DNA of 32,167 nt, taken from the NCBI GenBank assembly GCA_021683455.1, contig GCA_021683455.1_3051.2. The stretch is one strand, 5' to 3'. Made by a program: the position numbers and the translations under genes. Each line of letters opens with the position of its first letter. The stretch's first letter is position 1. A model generated the notes under the pieces. That model was not told the origin of the DNA, did not search any database, and saw nothing but the letters and a program-made list of their open reading frames with translations. Positions 10,309-16,863 of this stretch are shown here, in pieces. Origin of the DNA: a phage.

Positions 10309-10521
10309 ATGCTACAATTAACTGAAAAGCAACTTCGCAATCTTACTGTGCTTCAATTAGATGAAATTCGTAGGGAAGTTGGAAATATCATTTCAGCTTT
10401 GCGTCGAGAAGTATCACTCAACCAATCTCCGGCAGACTATACTAGATTGCGAAATTTTGAAAAATACCTTGATAAAGTTAAGGCCGTGCATCGGCATAAA
10501 GTAAATACAGGACAAAAATGA
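10309..10521 (+). CDS. hypothetical protein (rI.1-position ORF)
   Basis: AAAGGGG SD; exact TATAAATA late promoter at 10276-10283. Confidence 0.55.
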
Positions 10522-10533
10522 TAGGAGGCCTTT

Positions 10534-10827
10534 ATGGCCTTAAAAGCAACGGCACTTTTTGCCATGCTAGGATTGTCATTTGTTTTATCTCCATCGATTG
10601 AAGCGAATGTCGATCCTCATTTTGATAAATTTATGGAATCTGGTATTAGGCACGTTTATACACTTTTTGAAAATAAAAGCGTAGAATCGTCTGAACAATT
10701 CTATAGTTTTATGAGAACGACCTATAAAAATGACCCGTGCTCTTCTGATTTTGAATGTATAGAACGAGGCGCGGAGATGGCACAATCATACGCTAGAATT
10801 ATGAACATTAAATTGGAGACTGAATGA
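10534..10827 (+). CDS. rI: lysis-inhibition regulator rI
   Basis: 97 aa with N-terminal signal-anchor MALKATALFAMLGLSFVLSPS, matching T4 RI as I recall it; GGAGG SD. Confidence 0.8.
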   Translation: MALKATALFAMLGLSFVLSPSIEANVDPHFDKFMESGIRHVYTLFENKSVESSEQFYSFMRTTYKNDPCSSDFECIERGAEMAQSYARIMNIKLETE

Positions 10828-11210
10828 AATTCAGCGACTTTTCACAAAGTGGAAAACCTTCAAAGGCAGATGAATACTTAGGTTTATTAATGGCTGCACA
10901 AGCTTATTTTCATTCTGCACATTTTGAAACTAAAAGTTATGCTAGACACAAAGCATACGATTTTATTTTTTCCGAGTTGCCAGATTTGATTGATAAATTT
11001 GGTGAGCAATATTTGGGGTATTCTGGTAGAAAATACACGCCTTCAATTCCAGATGCCAGTAAACTTCCTACCGACACAATTAAAATGATTGATCGCATAC
11101 TAGACCAATCTAACAGCATTTATAAAGAAATGCCTCCAGCCATTCAAAGCACGATAGATGATATTACTGGAATGTTTTATCAGAGTAAGTATCTTCTTTC
11201 CCTCGAATAA
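10824..11210 (+). CDS. hypothetical protein (rI.-1-position ORF)
   Basis: ATGA overlap with rI stop; 128 aa; terminator follows. Confidence 0.55.
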
Positions 11211-11214
11211 CATT

Positions 11215-11237
11215 AGTCTCCTTCGGGAGACTTTTTT
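11215..11237 (+). terminator. intrinsic terminator (AGTCTCC-TTCG-GGAGACT + TTTTTT)
   Basis: 7-bp stem, UUCG loop, T-run. Confidence 0.8.
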
Positions 11238-11247
11238 CATTTTACCG

Positions 11248-11277
11248 GTTTACTTTTCGTTTGAGCCGTGGTACTAT
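11248..11277 (+). promoter_or_regulatory. early promoter (GTTTAC 11248-11253; TGGTACTAT -10 region)
   Basis: Directly follows terminator 11215-11237. Confidence 0.65.
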
Positions 11278-11305
11278 ACAACCATCGGATAAAGAGGAGA
11301 ACATC

Positions 11306-11494
11306 ATGAAAATTGAAGCACTTAATCAAGAAGGAAATATCTACGTCATCATTAATGGTGATTTTTTCGTCGACATGGATGAAGTTACTAGTGAAGAACT
11401 TGTAGAACTTCTTAAGAAACGTTATAATATGTGTGATGAAGTTGCAACTCACATGGCGTGTGCAATATTCTCTCTGTCATATGTGGTGGAATAA
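11306..11494 (+). CDS. small acidic protein
   Basis: AAGAGGAGA SD then ATG 11306; follows early promoter. Confidence 0.5.
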
Positions 11495-11697
11495 TGATTA
11501 GTATTGAACAAGCAGATAAAATTAAAGAATTGGTAGCTTCAATTCGTAAAGCAGATGAAGAGCTGATTGACTTTGCTTGGTATTCATCGGGTATTTCGAA
11601 TAAAGGCATTAAAGACTTTGAAACTAAAGTTGATAATGCTTTAGAAGCGTTAGATATGTTTCTTGATGAAATTATCGATCATAATACGAGAGTTTAA
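11494..11697 (+). CDS. small hypothetical protein
   Basis: ATG overlaps upstream TAA; 67 aa. Confidence 0.45.
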   Translation: MISIEQADKIKELVASIRKADEELIDFAWYSSGISNKGIKDFETKVDNALEALDMFLDEIIDHNTRV

Positions 11698-11699
11698 GT

Positions 11700-11894
11700 A
11701 TGCTAACACATGAACAGTTTGAAAAAATCATTAAATTAGCACGTGATATTGAAATAGATTCATATCAATTAGCAGTTGAGCATTGTGAAGGATATTCATA
11801 CGACGGTATAGAAACAGCTAAAAAGGATTTGGATAAATCTAAAGCTAAGTTAGTTCAATATCTTGAAATGATTAGGTGGAATAATGAAAACTGA
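11700..11894 (+). CDS. small hypothetical protein
   Basis: 64-aa ORF. Confidence 0.45.
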   Translation: MLTHEQFEKIIKLARDIEIDSYQLAVEHCEGYSYDGIETAKKDLDKSKAKLVQYLEMIRWNNEN

Positions 11895-12056
11895 AAAGCA
11901 GATGTTTTTAATGAAACTAATTGAAGAATATGCTAATGCAGTTTCTGACTATGAATGTTCTTCTCGGGAAAGAGGTACAGCTTTCGCCAAAGAAGAAATG
12001 AAAATCATGGTTGATGCTCATACAAAGCTTCAGAATTTTATTGAAAACGTCATTTA
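11885..12056 (+). CDS. small hypothetical protein (57 aa)
   Basis: ATG 11885 overlapping upstream ORF end; below track cutoff. Confidence 0.35.
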
Positions 12057-12059
12057 ATG

Positions 12060-12089
12060 GTTTACAAGTTGGCAAGGTTATGGTATAGT
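12060..12089 (+). promoter_or_regulatory. early promoter (GTTTAC 12060-12065; TGGTATAGT 12081-12089)
   Basis: 18-nt spacing, extended -10. Confidence 0.7.
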
Positions 12090-12224
12090 AATCTTGTCAA
12101 CTGTCAAGGAGAAGAGAATGAAAGTTTTGTTTGTTGTGTATGTGATGATTCAATATAATTACCCAATGTTTACTTATAATCTGGTGAACAACATTATTGA
12201 TATTATTCAAAGGAGTATGTAATT

Positions 12225-12782
12225 GTGAGTGAGTCGAAGAGAATCAATATGAAACGATTAGTATTAGAAGTTAGTCCGCTTTTTGGTGAATTGGCTATAG
12301 AAAAAGTAAATAACATGTATCGTTTGACGCAAGAAGACGATATGATGTATTTTACGCCTAGTGAAATCATTCATTTAACCCAAATTGAATATCCTTATAC
12401 TGATAAAATAGTAAGCATCAATGATGAGCACAAAATTCATTTTTATTCTTCATGCCCAGGATTTAATATTAAAAGTGAGTCAATGTGTTTATCAGTTATC
12501 CATTGGGATAGTTTTATAGATAAGATTAAATATTTTTATTATTCTAATGAAAGAAAACATAGTTTAAAATGGTTTAAAAATTGCAATGCTATTATTACTA
12601 ACGCTTGCAATCAGAACGATGAAACTCTTTTAAATGTATCAAAATGTTATGAAGAGGGAGATGTCTTAACTATTCGCCAAATTGACGATTTTCGATCACA
12701 TATTGTCACATTTACCAAAGACGAAGCTATTGCGCTAAAGACTTATCTTGATTCTGTCATTCCAACTATGATTTCAAAGTGA
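12225..12782 (+). CDS. hypothetical protein, first of a tandem paralog pair
   Basis: GTG start 9 nt after AAGGAG (alternative ATG 12249); C-terminus EAIALKTYLDSVIPTM resembles next ORF. Confidence 0.5.
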   Translation: MSESKRINMKRLVLEVSPLFGELAIEKVNNMYRLTQEDDMMYFTPSEIIHLTQIEYPYTDKIVSINDEHKIHFYSSCPGFNIKSESMCLSVIHWDSFIDKIKYFYYSNERKHSLKWFKNCNAIITNACNQNDETLLNVSKCYEEGDVLTIRQIDDFRSHIVTFTKDEAIALKTYLDSVIPTMISK

Positions 12783-12788
12783 GGAAAT

Positions 12789-13310
12789 ATGTTTATTTCA
12801 AGTGGAAGTGGTTTAATTCGCGTTAAATTTAAAAATGACATCTTCCTTAGTCAAGGAGATGATATTATTAAAATGAGTTATGACGAAATAAAGAAAATTT
12901 GTCATATTCTTGAAAGTCGTGGAAAAGGAAATGCTACTATCGATATAGGTGATTTATGGGTGACACTTTATGAAGTATCCGAAGGATTTAACATTGAAGA
13001 TGAAAATAACATTTTAGCTATTGATAAAAGAACTGATTTGCTTGATGTATTAAAAGTTTATGAACAGTCAAATGGTGGAAGAAAAGCTGCATTGATTTAT
13101 CAAAAACCACATTCATGTGGAACTGCTTCAATCATTTCAAATATTGAAGATGAAACTGATACTTATATGTGTGTTTTAAAAGCTGGTGGTGACCGTCATC
13201 CGGATTTTATTTCTATTCGTCAAAACAATGGAGAAATTTCATTATCAAAATCAGAAGCTGAAGCTATGATTAAGTATTTAACAACCGTTACGCCTTCAAT
13301 GAAAGGATAA
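12789..13310 (+). CDS. hypothetical protein, second of a tandem paralog pair
   Basis: GAGGAAA SD; C-terminus EAEAMIKYLTTVTPSM. Confidence 0.55.
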   Translation: MFISSGSGLIRVKFKNDIFLSQGDDIIKMSYDEIKKICHILESRGKGNATIDIGDLWVTLYEVSEGFNIEDENNILAIDKRTDLLDVLKVYEQSNGGRKAALIYQKPHSCGTASIISNIEDETDTYMCVLKAGGDRHPDFISIRQNNGEISLSKSEAEAMIKYLTTVTPSMKG

Positions 13311-13312
13311 TT

Positions 13313-13774
13313 ATGATTATTAATGAAAACTCTTGGCACTATAAATTATTCAAATTGTTTAACGATGAGTGGCAACGACCTAAGACACTATGCGCATATT
13401 TTTGGTCTATTGCCATTCCTACATTTTTCGTTTCTATTTTTGGATGTGCTATACTCGTAGGGCTAACAATTATCTGTGCAGAAAGTTTACAACGTTGGCT
13501 TATTTTCGGTAGTTTATGGACTCTTATTCCATCGGCATTTATACTTGCCATTTTGCTTGTTTTACTTATTATTGGTTCATTTGTTATTCCTGCACAACTG
13601 CATGAAAAATATAAAGATTATAAATGGAAAAAGGATTATGCTTTACATGTAGAAAATATTGATAGGGCGTATAAAGGTTTACCTCCTATTCAACCCAAGA
13701 AATCGATTATCGTTGAATTTTTAAAAGCTCGTAAAGCTAAAGTATGTCCTGTTATTGAATATAAGGCTGAATGA
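13313..13774 (+). CDS. integral membrane protein
   Basis: Two long hydrophobic segments then basic C-terminal tail. Confidence 0.55.
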   Translation: MIINENSWHYKLFKLFNDEWQRPKTLCAYFWSIAIPTFFVSIFGCAILVGLTIICAESLQRWLIFGSLWTLIPSAFILAILLVLLIIGSFVIPAQLHEKYKDYKWKKDYALHVENIDRAYKGLPPIQPKKSIIVEFLKARKAKVCPVIEYKAE

Positions 13775-14784
13775 TGAAAACAGTAATGAAAAGCTATTTT
13801 GGTAGTCATCTTTATGGAACTTCTACTCCAGAATCTGATGTAGATTTTAAAGAAATCTTTGTTCCTCCTGCTCGCGATATTCTTATCGGAAATGTTAAAG
13901 AGCACATGAGTAAAAACACTAACAACACATCATCTAAAAACACTAAAGATGATATTGACCATGAACTATACAGTCTTAAGTATTTCTTTAAATTAGCAGC
14001 AGATGGTGAAACTGTAGCATTGGATATGCTTCACACTCCACCTGAACTAGTGGTTAAATCTGATTTGCCTGATGTGTGGAAGTTTATTCAAGACAACCGT
14101 TCTCGTTTTTATACGACTAACATGAAATCCTATTTAGGATATGTTCGCAAGCAAGCTTCTAAATACGGTGTCAAGGGTTCTCGTTTGGCTGCATTACGCG
14201 ATGTATTGAAAGTAGTTAATCAAATCCCTGACCAGTGGGTCGACTATCAAGAAGGAATCCCTGATAGACTTCGTCGTACTAAGGTAGAAGATATTAAACA
14301 CAGACTCCCTGAAAACGAATTCTGTGAATGGGTGTTCCATAATCACGAGAAAACAGGCCCGCAAACGTTCTACACTGTGTTGGGTCGTAAATATCAGACA
14401 ACACTTTCTCTTATTGAGCTTAAGCAGTCACTGAACAAATTAGATGCTGAATATGGTGAACGTGCTCGTAAAGCCGAAGCTAATGAAGGTATTGATTGGA
14501 AAGCTCTGAGTCATGCTTGTCGTGGTGGACTTCAACTATTGGAAATTTACAAAACTGGTGACTTGATTTATCCACTCCAAGATGCTCCATTTATTCTCGA
14601 CGTGAAGTTGGGTAAGCATCCATTTAAAACGGTCCAAGAGTTTTTGGAAGATGTGGTCGATCAAGTAGAAGCAGCATCTATTGAAGCTTCTAAGAATGGT
14701 ATGCAGCAAAAAGTTGACATGAGTTTCTGGGATGACTTCCTTGAGAAGGTCTATCTTGAAAACCACCGAAGTTATTATAAATGA
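13771..14784 (+). CDS. Pol-beta-fold nucleotidyltransferase-like protein (nrdC.11-position ORF)
   Basis: N-terminal YFGSHLYGTSTPESDVDF matches the hG[GS]x9-13-DhD nucleotidyltransferase signature; 337 aa; followed by intrinsic terminator. Confidence 0.6.
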   Translation: MMKTVMKSYFGSHLYGTSTPESDVDFKEIFVPPARDILIGNVKEHMSKNTNNTSSKNTKDDIDHELYSLKYFFKLAADGETVALDMLHTPPELVVKSDLPDVWKFIQDNRSRFYTTNMKSYLGYVRKQASKYGVKGSRLAALRDVLKVVNQIPDQWVDYQEGIPDRLRRTKVEDIKHRLPENEFCEWVFHNHEKTGPQTFYTVLGRKYQTTLSLIELKQSLNKLDAEYGERARKAEANEGIDWKALSHACRGGLQLLEIYKTGDLIYPLQDAPFILDVKLGKHPFKTVQEFLEDVVDQVEAASIEASKNGMQQKVDMSFWDDFLEKVYLENHRSYYK

Positions 14785-14786
14785 TA

Positions 14787-14810
14787 GGGAGCCTTCGGGC
14801 TCCCTTTTTT
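14787..14810 (+). terminator. intrinsic terminator (GGGAGCC-TTCG-GGCTCCC + TTTTTT)
   Basis: 7-bp GC-rich stem, UUCG loop, T6. Confidence 0.85.
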
Positions 14811-14835
14811 ATTTCAAAAATTTTTTCACAAAACG

Positions 14836-14865
14836 GTTTACAAACATAAGGCTTTATGGTATTAT
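14836..14865 (+). promoter_or_regulatory. early promoter (GTTTAC 14836-14841; TGGTATTAT 14857-14865)
   Basis: Directly follows terminator 14787-14810. Confidence 0.75.
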
Positions 14866-14888
14866 ACAACTATCAACTACTGATACAG
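14857..14888 (+). repeat. 32-nt early promoter -10/leader cassette, copy 2
   Basis: 31/32 identical to 14-45 by eye. Confidence 0.85.
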
Positions 14889-14902
14889 ATTTGGAGAATA
14901 AA

Positions 14903-15871
14903 ATGAAAACTGTAACTATCAATAAGGGTATCTACTTCGGTAAAGAAATCTCTGGAACTTTTGAGCTCTTAGGCGAATGGTTCCCAGATAATGCTCCGGT
15001 AGATGCACAAGGAGATGGTAAAGTTTTTGTTGAAATTGACGGTAAACGTCGCGGTGTTTGGGTTTACAAATCAGACATTTCATATGATGGTGTAAAAGTT
15101 GAAGAAGTTAAAGAATCGTATGAAGATATGAAAACCCGCATTAATAAAAGATTTAATGTTATGGGAATGATGACGAATGGTATTATTAACGGAAACATTC
15201 GTTCATTAATTATCTCTGGTGCAGCAGGTATTGGTAAAACGTATTCTTTAGATAAAGCTTTAAATAAAGCAAATGATATTGGATACATTGAATATAAAAG
15301 CATTAACGGTAAAATCTCCGGTATCGGTCTTTATGAGCAGCTTTGGAATAATCGTGAAGAGAATTCTGTCCTTTTGATTGATGATGTGGATGTTTTCTCT
15401 GATATGGATATTCTTAATCTTCTAAAAGCCGCTCTGGACACTGGAGAGACCCGTAAAGTCTGCTGGAGCACTGCATCTTCTTACTTAGAAGAAAAAGGCA
15501 TTGAGCGTGAGTTTGAATTTAAAGGAACGATTGTTTTTATCACAAACGTTGACATTGACCGCGAATTAGACCGTGGTACTAAACTTGCTCCACATTTACA
15601 AGCATTAGTGTCCCGCTCAGTTTATTTGGATTTGGGTGTTCACACTAATGAAGAAATTATGGTCAGGGTTGAAGATGTTATTCTTTCAACTGACATGATG
15701 CAAAAGCGCGGTCTTTCTGATGAAGAAACTTATAAAGCATTATCATGGATGAAAGTCAATGTTAATCGTTTACGCAATGTTTCACTGCGTACTGCTCTTT
15801 ATCTTGCTGACTTTATTATGACCGACAAAAACGGTTGGGAAGAAATCGCTGAGGTTACTCTTCTGAAATAA
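14903..15871 (+). CDS. AAA+-like ATPase (nrdC.10-position ORF)
   Basis: Walker A SGAAGIGKT, Walker B VLLIDDVD, sensor-1-like FITN; first ATG after early promoter; track frame 14732 crosses terminator and promoter. Confidence 0.6.
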   Translation: MKTVTINKGIYFGKEISGTFELLGEWFPDNAPVDAQGDGKVFVEIDGKRRGVWVYKSDISYDGVKVEEVKESYEDMKTRINKRFNVMGMMTNGIINGNIRSLIISGAAGIGKTYSLDKALNKANDIGYIEYKSINGKISGIGLYEQLWNNREENSVLLIDDVDVFSDMDILNLLKAALDTGETRKVCWSTASSYLEEKGIEREFEFKGTIVFITNVDIDRELDRGTKLAPHLQALVSRSVYLDLGVHTNEEIMVRVEDVILSTDMMQKRGLSDEETYKALSWMKVNVNRLRNVSLRTALYLADFIMTDKNGWEEIAEVTLLK

Positions 15872-15972
15872 TTCATAAGAGGACTTCTATGACAAAAAGG
15901 CAGTTCAGAAATAGATTATATGGACTGCCATCAAAAAGATGACTAGAATTAAACTGGTGAATGGAGGTAGTG

Positions 15973-16275
15973 ATGTTATACTCAAAGGCTCGTGAAATTT
16001 ATGAAACTAAAATTAAAGACGCGGTTCATCAGTTCGCAACGACAATGCGTTGGACAAATGACTGGGAATACTCCAAGAATCATAAGAAGCCCTTGGTGAC
16101 AAGAAAGGCTCATATGTTAGTGTTAATAGACCGTGAGCAGATTAAAGCCCGAGAAGCCCTCCAGAATCATAAAAAGGCTGCCTTTGAATGGTTTATGGAT
16201 AACACTGCTCCTGAGACTAAGAAAGCGGTCAGCGCATGGTTCAGTGGAAAAAATTGTGAAAGAAGTTTCTTTTAG
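15973..16275 (+). CDS. hypothetical basic protein
   Basis: GGAGG SD then ATG 15973; 100 aa. Confidence 0.5.
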   Translation: MLYSKAREIYETKIKDAVHQFATTMRWTNDWEYSKNHKKPLVTRKAHMLVLIDREQIKAREALQNHKKAAFEWFMDNTAPETKKAVSAWFSGKNCERSFF

Positions 16276-16277
16276 TT

Positions 16278-16308
16278 GTTTACAAGACTGTTCCTCTGTG
16301 GTACTATA
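16278..16308 (+). promoter_or_regulatory. early promoter (GTTTAC 16278-16283; TGGTACTAT 16299-16308)
   Basis: Upstream of ATG 16336. Confidence 0.65.
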
Positions 16309-16322
16309 CAACTATCAACTAC
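16299..16322 (+). repeat. early promoter -10/leader cassette, copy 3 (24 nt)
   Basis: Identical to first 24 nt of copy 1, then diverges into GGAGG SD. Confidence 0.8.
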
Positions 16323-16335
16323 GGAGGAACAGAAA

Positions 16336-16863
16336 ATGAATGCTAAAGATATTTTCAACCTGGTAAATTACAACGATGGTAAATTTAAATCTGAAGCACA
16401 AAGCAAGTTCTTTAATGACATCTCAATCGGAGGTGAAATCACTGTTGATGGAGGACAAATTTACAAATCCCGTTGGAATTGGATCGTTATTATTGATGAA
16501 ATTGGTATTGTAGAAATTTACAAAAATACGAATAAAAATCGTACATTACACTGGTCTCGTGATACTAACGAACAGTACAAAAAGGATAAAGCATCTAAAT
16601 TATCTCGTGTAACTCAAGAAGATATTGAGTTCATCAAGAAAGATATTTTAATGTATGATAACTTAATTGCTGAAGAGCAAGCTGTTATTGATAAATTTGA
16701 TGAGATTAAAGCTTCTCGTGAAATTCCTGATTTTATGAAAGAATCAGTAAATGAACGATACACTCTCATTTCAGAGCGTATTGAAACTTACAAAAAGCAA
16801 AGAGCTGAACGCCAGAACACTCTTCGGAAATTTGAAGAACGGTTAAAGACGGTACTCGCATAA
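16336..16863 (+). CDS. hypothetical protein
   Basis: GGAGG SD then ATG 16336, after early promoter; 175 aa. Confidence 0.55.
   Translation: MNAKDIFNLVNYNDGKFKSEAQSKFFNDISIGGEITVDGGQIYKSRWNWIVIIDEIGIVEIYKNTNKNRTLHWSRDTNEQYKKDKASKLSRVTQEDIEFIKKDILMYDNLIAEEQAVIDKFDEIKASREIPDFMKESVNERYTLISERIETYKKQRAERQNTLRKFEERLKTVLA

Follow-up and report, generated by a model that had tools for sequence, protein, structure and literature searches.

Phage T4 carries, in its early region, the gene mobD.1 (the 'y05I' of Pfam names). Our literature searches returned no functional study of its product: 'mobD.1' was found in one review table only, and 'y05I' gave irrelevant matches only. The T4 block nrdC.11-mobD.3, which includes mobD.1, is lost in a viable genome-reduced T4 (PMC9825161), and the genes appear dispensable in the laboratory. 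Here we analyse two adjacent open reading frames (ORFs) related to this gene, ORF1 and ORF2, together with the membrane-protein gene that follows them (ORF3), in a 32,167-nucleotide (nt) stretch of phage DNA (NCBI GenBank assembly GCA_021683455.1, contig GCA_021683455.1_3051.2), the whole of which we call the window. ORF1 is the ortholog of T4 mobD.1, with 87% identity by tblastn and the same genomic slot. ORF2 shares with it both domains, in matching order, and the PHROG, yet it is only 27-29% identical to T4 MobD.1 and is gone from T4.

The other described systems that come close do so by structure. Eukaryotic Pur-alpha (PDB 3k44 for repeats I-II; 5fgo and 8chw for repeat III) is named in a 2020 review as the only reported protein with an intramolecular two-repeat domain and a lone dimerising repeat (PMC7549692). 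The predicted three-repeat layout of the phage proteins is alike, but the phage proteins, besides being acidic, are 5-11% identical to it in structural alignments, and no sequence relationship is detectable. Single-repeat (type II) PC4-like proteins (human PC4, fungal Sub1, Lactococcus YdbC, Borrelia Bpur and the PC4-like protein of phage T5, PDB 4bg7) show no sequence similarity to stand-alone phage proteins made of the C-terminal domain of the family. These stand-alone proteins differ from the PC4-like ones in being acidic in 10 of 11 cases (isoelectric point (pI) 4.3-5.3, the exception at 9.2) and always encoded directly 5' of a small membrane protein, a linkage that to our knowledge is not known for PC4-like proteins. 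The Whirly-like N-domain of KhtT (7agw) and SsgA/SsgB (3cm1) are similar in structure only, and less so than Pur-alpha; these non-basic proteins work by contacting other proteins at the membrane or the division site. In the literature we found no paper that ties PC4-like folds to the MobD.1/Y05I phage proteins.

Two members of the MobD.1/Y05I family

A sequence-only reading of this DNA had singled out the two ORFs (185 and 173 amino acids (aa)) for their matching C-termini and proposed a duplication followed by divergence. We reproduced both ORFs and both terminal segments (KDEAIALKTYLDSVIPTMISK in ORF1 and KSEAEAMIKYLTTVTPSMKG in ORF2), which are identical at 8 of 16 residues; in an alignment of 22 C-domains they correspond to the motif that the family conserves best (consensus ...ftK.EA.aLv.YLnsVIPTM). 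The similarity is not limited to the last ~15 residues. It spans the full length in BLASTP (176 aa aligned, 27% identity, 50% positives; E 8e-10 in this single comparison), and both ORFs share two Pfam domains at scores above both gathering cut-offs (24.9 bits for PF24449 and 27 bits for PF24448). PF24449 (T4_y05I_N) matches ORF1 at 133.9 bits (E 3.5e-39, residues 12-108) and ORF2 at 106.7 bits (E 1.1e-30, residues 2-95), and PF24448 (T4_y05I_C) matches ORF1 at 72.4 bits (E 3.9e-20, residues 113-182) and ORF2 at 82.3 bits (E 3.2e-23, residues 102-171). Both are also matched over their full length by phrog_1502 (E 1.9e-80 for ORF1 and 2.1e-66 for ORF2). By these alignments ORF1 and ORF2 are almost certainly paralogs of the T4 MobD.1/Y05I family (PF24449 plus PF24448; PHROG 1502).

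The exact start of ORF1 is ambiguous between the GTG at 12225, which lies 8 nt after AAGGAG, and the ATG at 12249, which would give 177 aa and is used by several GenBank records. T4 mobD.1 starts at an ATG one codon upstream of the latter, where the window has ATT. The Pfam domains start downstream of all three candidate starts.

Purifying selection is indicated for ORF1, ORF2 and ORF3 in the pairs compared: among in-register pairs from Tequatrovirus, the ratio of non-synonymous to synonymous substitution rates (dN/dS) was 0.11-0.23 for ORF1, 0.05-0.26 for ORF2 and 0.05-0.22 for ORF3. Values above 1 for ORF1 of T6 or W14-2 against the other four phages were spurious and were dropped, because these alleles differ by an indel and had been compared without gaps.

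That the resemblance could be a short C-terminal motif on unrelated proteins, or that one ORF could be a decaying, non-functional copy, has some footing in the low identity of 27%, in the last ~16 residues being the clearest match, in the frameshifting of both copies in T2 and in the loss of the mobD.1-containing block from viable genome-reduced T4. This explanation, to which we give next to no probability, is already refuted by the full-length alignment (E 8e-10), by the match of both N-domains to PF24449 at E <=1e-30, by structural models that agree between the two proteins, and by the intactness of both ORFs in the window and their dN/dS of 0.05-0.26 across Tequatrovirus genomes.

The family is narrow, since 1.84 billion representative proteins, searched exhaustively with a profile, yielded just 28 relatives and no distant annotated one; a word-indexed profile search added three close relatives and no more. 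Within the sequences searched, the MobD.1/Y05I family is restricted to T4-like phages. About half of the 28 relatives are stand-alone C-domain proteins of 67-87 aa. Family members are consistently acidic: pI is 5.7 for ORF1, 5.1 for ORF2 and 4.2-5.3 for 14 of 15 other members, so that 16 of the 17 proteins computed, including all but one of the stand-alone C-domains, lie at 4.2-5.7. In Jiaodavirus, a DUF7189 protein (contig positions 1393-1581) is encoded directly 5' of the stand-alone Y05I C-domain protein. DUF7189 has weak, sub-threshold matches to Y05I proteins (E 1e-4 and 8e-4; ORF2 residues 15-42) and may be another diverged copy of the small Y05I unit.

Predicted three-unit fold, possible membrane partner and candidate ligands

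We built AlphaFold2 models on a 20-sequence family alignment and obtained a mean predicted local distance difference test (pLDDT) of 74.7 for ORF1 and 70.9 for ORF2, with the N-domains at ~85-90 and that of ORF1 at ~90. DSSP assigned to both models three successive E-E-E-E-H (beta-beta-beta-beta-alpha) units, the third at pLDDT 41-74 and with five strands in the ORF1 model; this is the PUR-repeat fold, here seen in predicted models. Structure prediction thus bore out the relationship as well, the two models agreeing in element order and in best structural match. The proteins are likely to adopt a PUR/PC4-like three-unit fold in which units I and II form the N-domain and unit III the C-domain, as in eukaryotic Pur-alpha, and the segments KDEAIALKTYLDSVIPTMISK and KSEAEAMIKYLTTVTPSMKG are predicted to be the helix of unit III.

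Profile comparison adds independent sequence evidence for what appears to be internal repetition. When the unit I profile was aligned with the C-domain family profile by hhalign, a local match was found in the structural register (probability 92.9%, E 3.8e-7, 31 columns); unit II showed no similarity to unit I or unit III by the same method. The stand-alone T4_y05I_C proteins, and a natural hybrid described below, further suggest that unit III is an autonomous module. Foldseek searches of viral models gave credible scores for family members only, matches to giant-virus topoisomerases being disregarded at TM-scores <0.2. Sequence searches of PDB chains with ORF1, ORF2 and the family profile found nothing relevant, and NCBIfam and PADLOC gave no meaningful match for ORF1-3, nrdC.11 or nrdC.10.

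By itself, a lone unit III could not complete a PC4-like domain. It would instead join another unit III, in the manner of Pur-alpha repeat III, PC4 and Borrelia Bpur; we judge the chances of such dimerisation through unit III to be evenly balanced. Homodimers must suffice, since single-copy phages exist, and ORF1-ORF2 heterodimers would be possible where both are co-expressed.

The gene that follows the pair offers a candidate partner. The sequence-only reading had described it as an overlapping membrane protein, and here it erred: ORF3 starts 2 nt after the ORF2 stop without overlapping it, and its sole overlap is that of its own stop with the nrdC.11 start (13771-13774, ATGA). Its hydropathy profile has two long hydrophobic stretches (~residues 27-57 and 62-96). 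Homologs occur in 913 phage records, and across six genera the hydrophobic core is variable while H9, C27, C145 and P146 are invariant and the soluble basic ends are conserved (N-terminus M.I...SWH...P..LC.YFW; C-terminus KA.K.K.CP). These conserved termini hint at a metal- or partner-binding cytoplasmic site. PHROGs places ORF3 in the category 'moron, auxiliary metabolic gene and host takeover'. In Tequatro-, Mosig-, Dhaka-, Teguna-, Jiaoda- and Karamvirus, a gene with T4_y05I_C is found immediately 5' of a phrog_944 membrane gene. In the last three this gene encodes a stand-alone C-domain protein (PF24448 at E 6e-20, 4e-24 and 4e-17, respectively), and the genes 5' of the two, and those between the membrane gene and nrdC.11, vary.

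The ligand may, as a tentative first choice, be a protein, most likely the membrane protein encoded next to the pair, by way of its conserved basic cytoplasmic ends, or else a host protein, as part of early host takeover. A single-stranded nucleic acid (DNA or RNA), the ligand of Pur-alpha, PC4 and Whirly proteins, seems less probable, and something else takes up the remainder. A protein partner ranks above nucleic acid because of the acidity of the family, its conserved adjacency to a membrane protein with basic ends and the fact that T4 lost ORF2 together with ORF3.

A competing view takes the resemblance to Pur-alpha and PC4 at face value. The proteins would then be true functional analogues of these factors, dimeric, binding single-stranded DNA or RNA and destabilising duplexes, and would act on early phage transcription, replication or mRNA, with the paralogs differing in the sequences recognised. 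We think this unlikely. Characterised PC4-like nucleic-acid binders are basic, whereas this family is acidic (16 of 17 members at pI 4.2-5.7); there is no sequence similarity to the PUR, PC4 or Whirly families; SsgA/B and the KhtT N-domain, protein binders of like fold, also score high; and no nucleic-acid-contacting residues could be mapped.

Taken together, paralogy, a Pur-alpha-like fold, a unit III dimer and a role as a binding module make up the explanation that we favour, at rather better than even confidence for the whole. Several observations weigh against it. The models were built on shallow alignments (20 sequences), and C-domain pLDDT is 55-74 in ORF1 and 41-71 in ORF2, so that unit III stands on weaker ground than the N-domain. 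Neither ORF matches Pfam PurA or DUF3276 at E up to 0.1, and a PDB search with the family profile, at E up to 10, brought up no chain of PUR, PC4 or Whirly type. The phage proteins are therefore not to be filed as PUR family members, and their likeness to Pur-alpha is one of predicted fold and layout. The Pfam label 'putative transcription factor' may derive from a likeness of this kind. Net acidity argues against nucleic-acid binding, but a local basic face is still possible. The adjacency of family gene and membrane gene could reflect the general synteny of T4-like genomes, and T4 keeps mobD.1 under purifying selection (dN/dS 0.17-0.20) without ORF2 or ORF3, so the membrane protein is dispensable for the ORF1 lineage at least. 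Finally, phage G4507 joins a first copy only 48% identical to ORF1 with a second copy 95% identical to ORF2, which speaks against a tightly co-evolved heterodimer.

Copy number, mosaicism and replacement by mobD

The pair is common among T4-like phages. With ORF1 as query, tblastn matched 729 phage records (414 at >=80% identity and 313 at <60%); with ORF2 it matched 434 at >=80%, the other matches being only weak cross-hits and T2. Hundreds of sequenced T4-like phages have genes that are 92-98% identical to the two ORFs. From the record counts, two copies followed by the membrane gene are the majority state in Tequatrovirus (AR1, T6, RB32, SF2-1 and G4507). In Mosigvirus (LF82-31) and Dhakavirus (VR5), a lone full-length copy precedes the membrane gene, and nrdC.11 comes next. 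Relatives thus carry either one copy (T4, Mosigvirus, Dhakavirus and the natural hybrid) or two (~430 records).

How the second copy arose is less clear-cut. ORF2 is 21-31% identical to any mobD.1-type protein, and the mobD.1 orthologs of Tequatro-, Mosig- and Dhakavirus are 32-48% identical among themselves. In a neighbour-joining tree based on ~175 poorly conserved columns, the ORF2 clade lies outside the clade that joins these orthologs. At the DNA level, the sole in-register similarity between ORF1 and ORF2 is a 21-nt stretch (81%) at the GFNI motif. We rejected a recent tandem duplication on three counts: only this one DNA match remains, the pair is present in ~430 records and ORF2 falls outside the mobD.1 orthologs of three genera. 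Low identity, tree and DNA remnant together mean that the duplication is old, or that ORF2 is fast-evolving, or that it was imported; with ~175 columns, these sequence-based alternatives cannot be separated. Of the proposed duplication and divergence, then, the common ancestry of the pair stands, with the qualifications that the split is old (27-29% identity) and that duplication in situ and acquisition of a paralog by recombination are not told apart.

Import deserves weighing because the region is mosaic. In G4507 the first copy is 75% identical to the Mosigvirus gene, so that by these comparisons a Mosigvirus-like copy 1 is coupled with a window-like ORF2. ORF2 could accordingly be a distant family member that was recombined in from another T4-like lineage, between mobD.1 and the membrane gene, the tandem order being secondary. 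Besides the G4507 arrangement, the exchange of whole genes at this locus by the T4 mobD cassette, the branching of ORF2 outside all mobD.1 orthologs and the existence of a divergent ORF2 allele (P0010) at 56-57% identity speak for such an origin. Set against these, no phage was found with an ORF2-type gene as its sole copy, Mosigvirus and Dhakavirus each have a single copy that is nearer to mobD.1, and the topology, drawn from few and poorly conserved columns, would be the same had ORF2 evolved faster after duplication. We regard import as a minority possibility.

In T4, most of ORF2 and ORF3 has been replaced. A blastn comparison of the window with the T4 record U76612 found homology at 10514-12807 and 13770-16435 and none between; it ends 17 nt into ORF2, and in place of the intervening segment T4 has an 808-bp cassette with mobD, which encodes an HNH homing endonuclease. 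T4 retains the ORF2 ribosome-binding site and a remnant ORF of 23 codons (U76612 positions 2240-2311) composed of the first six codons of ORF2 (MFISSG) and 17 others. Because this leader is kept in front of mobD, the T4 state is derived, mobD having replaced ORF2 and ORF3. The stop of the remnant overlaps the mobD ATG (ATGA), an arrangement by which mobD may be translationally coupled to it. At >=95% identity, mobD occurs in 47 records. The target of MobD is listed as unknown (PMC2988022), and the segment absent from T4 is an obvious place to seek it.

A natural in-frame hybrid, P0011 (179 aa), joins window positions 12237-12620 to 13149-13345, that is, the N-part of ORF1 to the C-part of ORF2, and is followed by a membrane gene and nrdC.11. 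Six contigs, which come from no fewer than three sequencing runs, carry it, and its crossover is at the 9-nt GATGAAACT that both paralogs contain in frame. To the extent that these contigs show, the N- and C-parts of the paralogs are exchangeable in nature. The hybrid-bearing phage (hybrid gene at contig positions 3001-3540) also has a divergent membrane protein of 157 aa.

In T2 (MH751506, 1940-2500 and 2501-3019) both paralogs are frameshifted. Each has its N- and C-terminal parts in one frame and a central stretch of ~75 codons intact in another, the pattern of a pair of opposite-sign frameshifts per gene with a shifted segment that shows no decay. A second T2 record has the same three-piece pattern for ORF1.

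Probable transcription unit, annotation and significance

The window has ~35% G+C and, in the ORF listing, codes almost wholly on the + strand. Positions 11800-14000 are 97.4% identical in DNA to Escherichia phage AR1 and are matched by 513 phage records, nearly all Tequatrovirus, of which 429 cover >=80% of the stretch; these matches place the window in Tequatrovirus. Annotation of AR1 and T4 puts the pair in the early region rI / rI.-1 / mobD.5...mobD.1 / nrdC.11 / nrdC.10, and its slot between the small genes mobD.2-mobD.5 and nrdC.11 is collinear with AR1, T4, G4507, T6 and the Mosigvirus and Dhakavirus genomes. Coordinates are collected in Table 1.

Table 1 Features of the mobD.1 locus, by position in the window
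Feature	Position	Strand	Details
Early (sigma-70-type) promoter-like site	12061..12089	+	TTTACA-17-TATAGT, upstream TG; 10/12 consensus matches; top-scoring + strand site
mobD.2	12118..12222	+	34 codons; collinear with T4 mobD.2; stop 2 nt before ORF1 GTG
ORF1, ortholog of T4 mobD.1	12225..12782	+	GTG start; 185 aa; ends ...KDEAIALKTYLDSVIPTMISK
ORF1 N-domain (units I and II)	~12258-12548
ORF1 C-domain (unit III)	~12561-12770
GATGAAACT in ORF1	12618..12626	+	Codons D-E-T of unit III; hybrid crossover point
ORF2, RB32ORF097c / ar1_101-type mobD.1 paralog	12789..13310	+	ATG start; 173 aa; ends ...KSEAEAMIKYLTTVTPSMKG
ORF2 N-domain	~12792-13073
Segment missing from T4	12808..13769	+	962 bp; ORF2 past its sixth codon, and ORF3; blastn against T4 U76612
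ORF2 C-domain	~13092-13301
GATGAAACT in ORF2	13149..13157	+	Partner copy, 531 nt away, in frame
ORF3, small basic membrane protein (RB32ORF096c / ar1_100)	13313..13774	+	153 aa; pI 9.3; phrog_944 'membrane protein', E 2.3e-50
nrdC.11, last gene of the unit	13771..14784	+	PF10127 RlaP, E 2.6e-11; phrog_388, E 3.7e-136; collinear with T4 nrdC.11
Intrinsic terminator-like hairpin	14786..14805	+	8 bp stem, 6 G-C pairs, then T run; end of the unit
Next early promoter-like site	14837-14865		After the terminator-like hairpin

The promoter-like site upstream of mobD.2 is collinear with -35/-10 signals annotated 5' of mobD.2 in U76612 and is likely to start a unit mobD.2 - ORF1 - ORF2 - ORF3 - nrdC.11, whose genes are spaced by <=6 nt or overlap. 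At positions collinear with the hairpin and with the next promoter-like site, the T4 record has a terminator and early promoter 54.4; the boundaries of the unit are defined by consensus matches and homology to T4 annotation. By its domain matches nrdC.11 encodes an RlaP / DNA polymerase beta-like nucleotidyltransferase, and mobD.2 has no Pfam match. Rfam at the gathering threshold found nothing in the whole window, and a minus-strand gene or RNA beneath the pair was discarded, there being only ORFs of <=70 aa and no Rfam match.

Directly 5' of the region lies a second tandem paralog array, formed by mobD.4, mobD.3 and mobD.2a (11494-11694, 11700-11891 and 11884-12054; 67, 64 and 57 aa), all of which match Pfam DUF7438 (E 4e-15 to 1e-16); related contigs have four such genes. 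Downstream, the 379-aa ORF listed for nrdC.10 (14732-15871) begins within nrdC.11 and runs across the terminator-like hairpin and the promoter-like site that follows it. The true start is probably an ATG near 14897 (MKTVTINKG...), in keeping with a phrog_1250 match that begins at residue 58 and with the gene as annotated in T4 and AR1; apart from weak P-loop/AAA-type matches, the protein has none in the Pfam scan.

Many GenBank/RefSeq records label MobD.1 homologs, and some of the small mobD.x genes, 'molybdopterin-guanine dinucleotide biosynthesis protein MobD', and label nrdC.11 'thioredoxin'. No domain match in the Pfam scan backs either label, and both look like artefacts of gene-name propagation, mobD being the mobile endonuclease and nrdC a nearby phage thioredoxin gene.

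As a genome feature the pair is ordinary, being present in hundreds of sequenced phages and belonging to a family already in Pfam and PHROG. What we have not found stated elsewhere are the three-unit Pur-alpha-like reading, the unit I/III repeat, the pairing with a membrane protein, the mobD junctions and the natural hybrid. As something of a long shot, the MobD.1/Y05I proteins would be the first from a phage, or from any non-eukaryote, to show the complete Pur-alpha layout. They would have arisen independently, their precursor being a small acidic protein of one repeat whose work, in early host takeover or counter-defence, is done together with a conserved membrane protein that has two cysteines. 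The paralogs would form homo- and heterodimers with different targets and, as a corollary, MobD would cut the ORF2-ORF3 segment of mobD-less phages, its homing deleting the module.

For annotation, the analysis flags a widespread error in the name 'molybdopterin-guanine dinucleotide biosynthesis protein MobD'. The locus is also a clean example of a homing-endonuclease cassette replacing two cargo genes, and suggests where the MobD target may lie. The analysis gives a testable handle on a T4-type early gene block, in the form of a predicted fold, a probable dimerisation module that also stands alone and a conserved gene for a membrane-protein partner; as an entry point to this early module of T4-like phages, the pair gains some modest interest.

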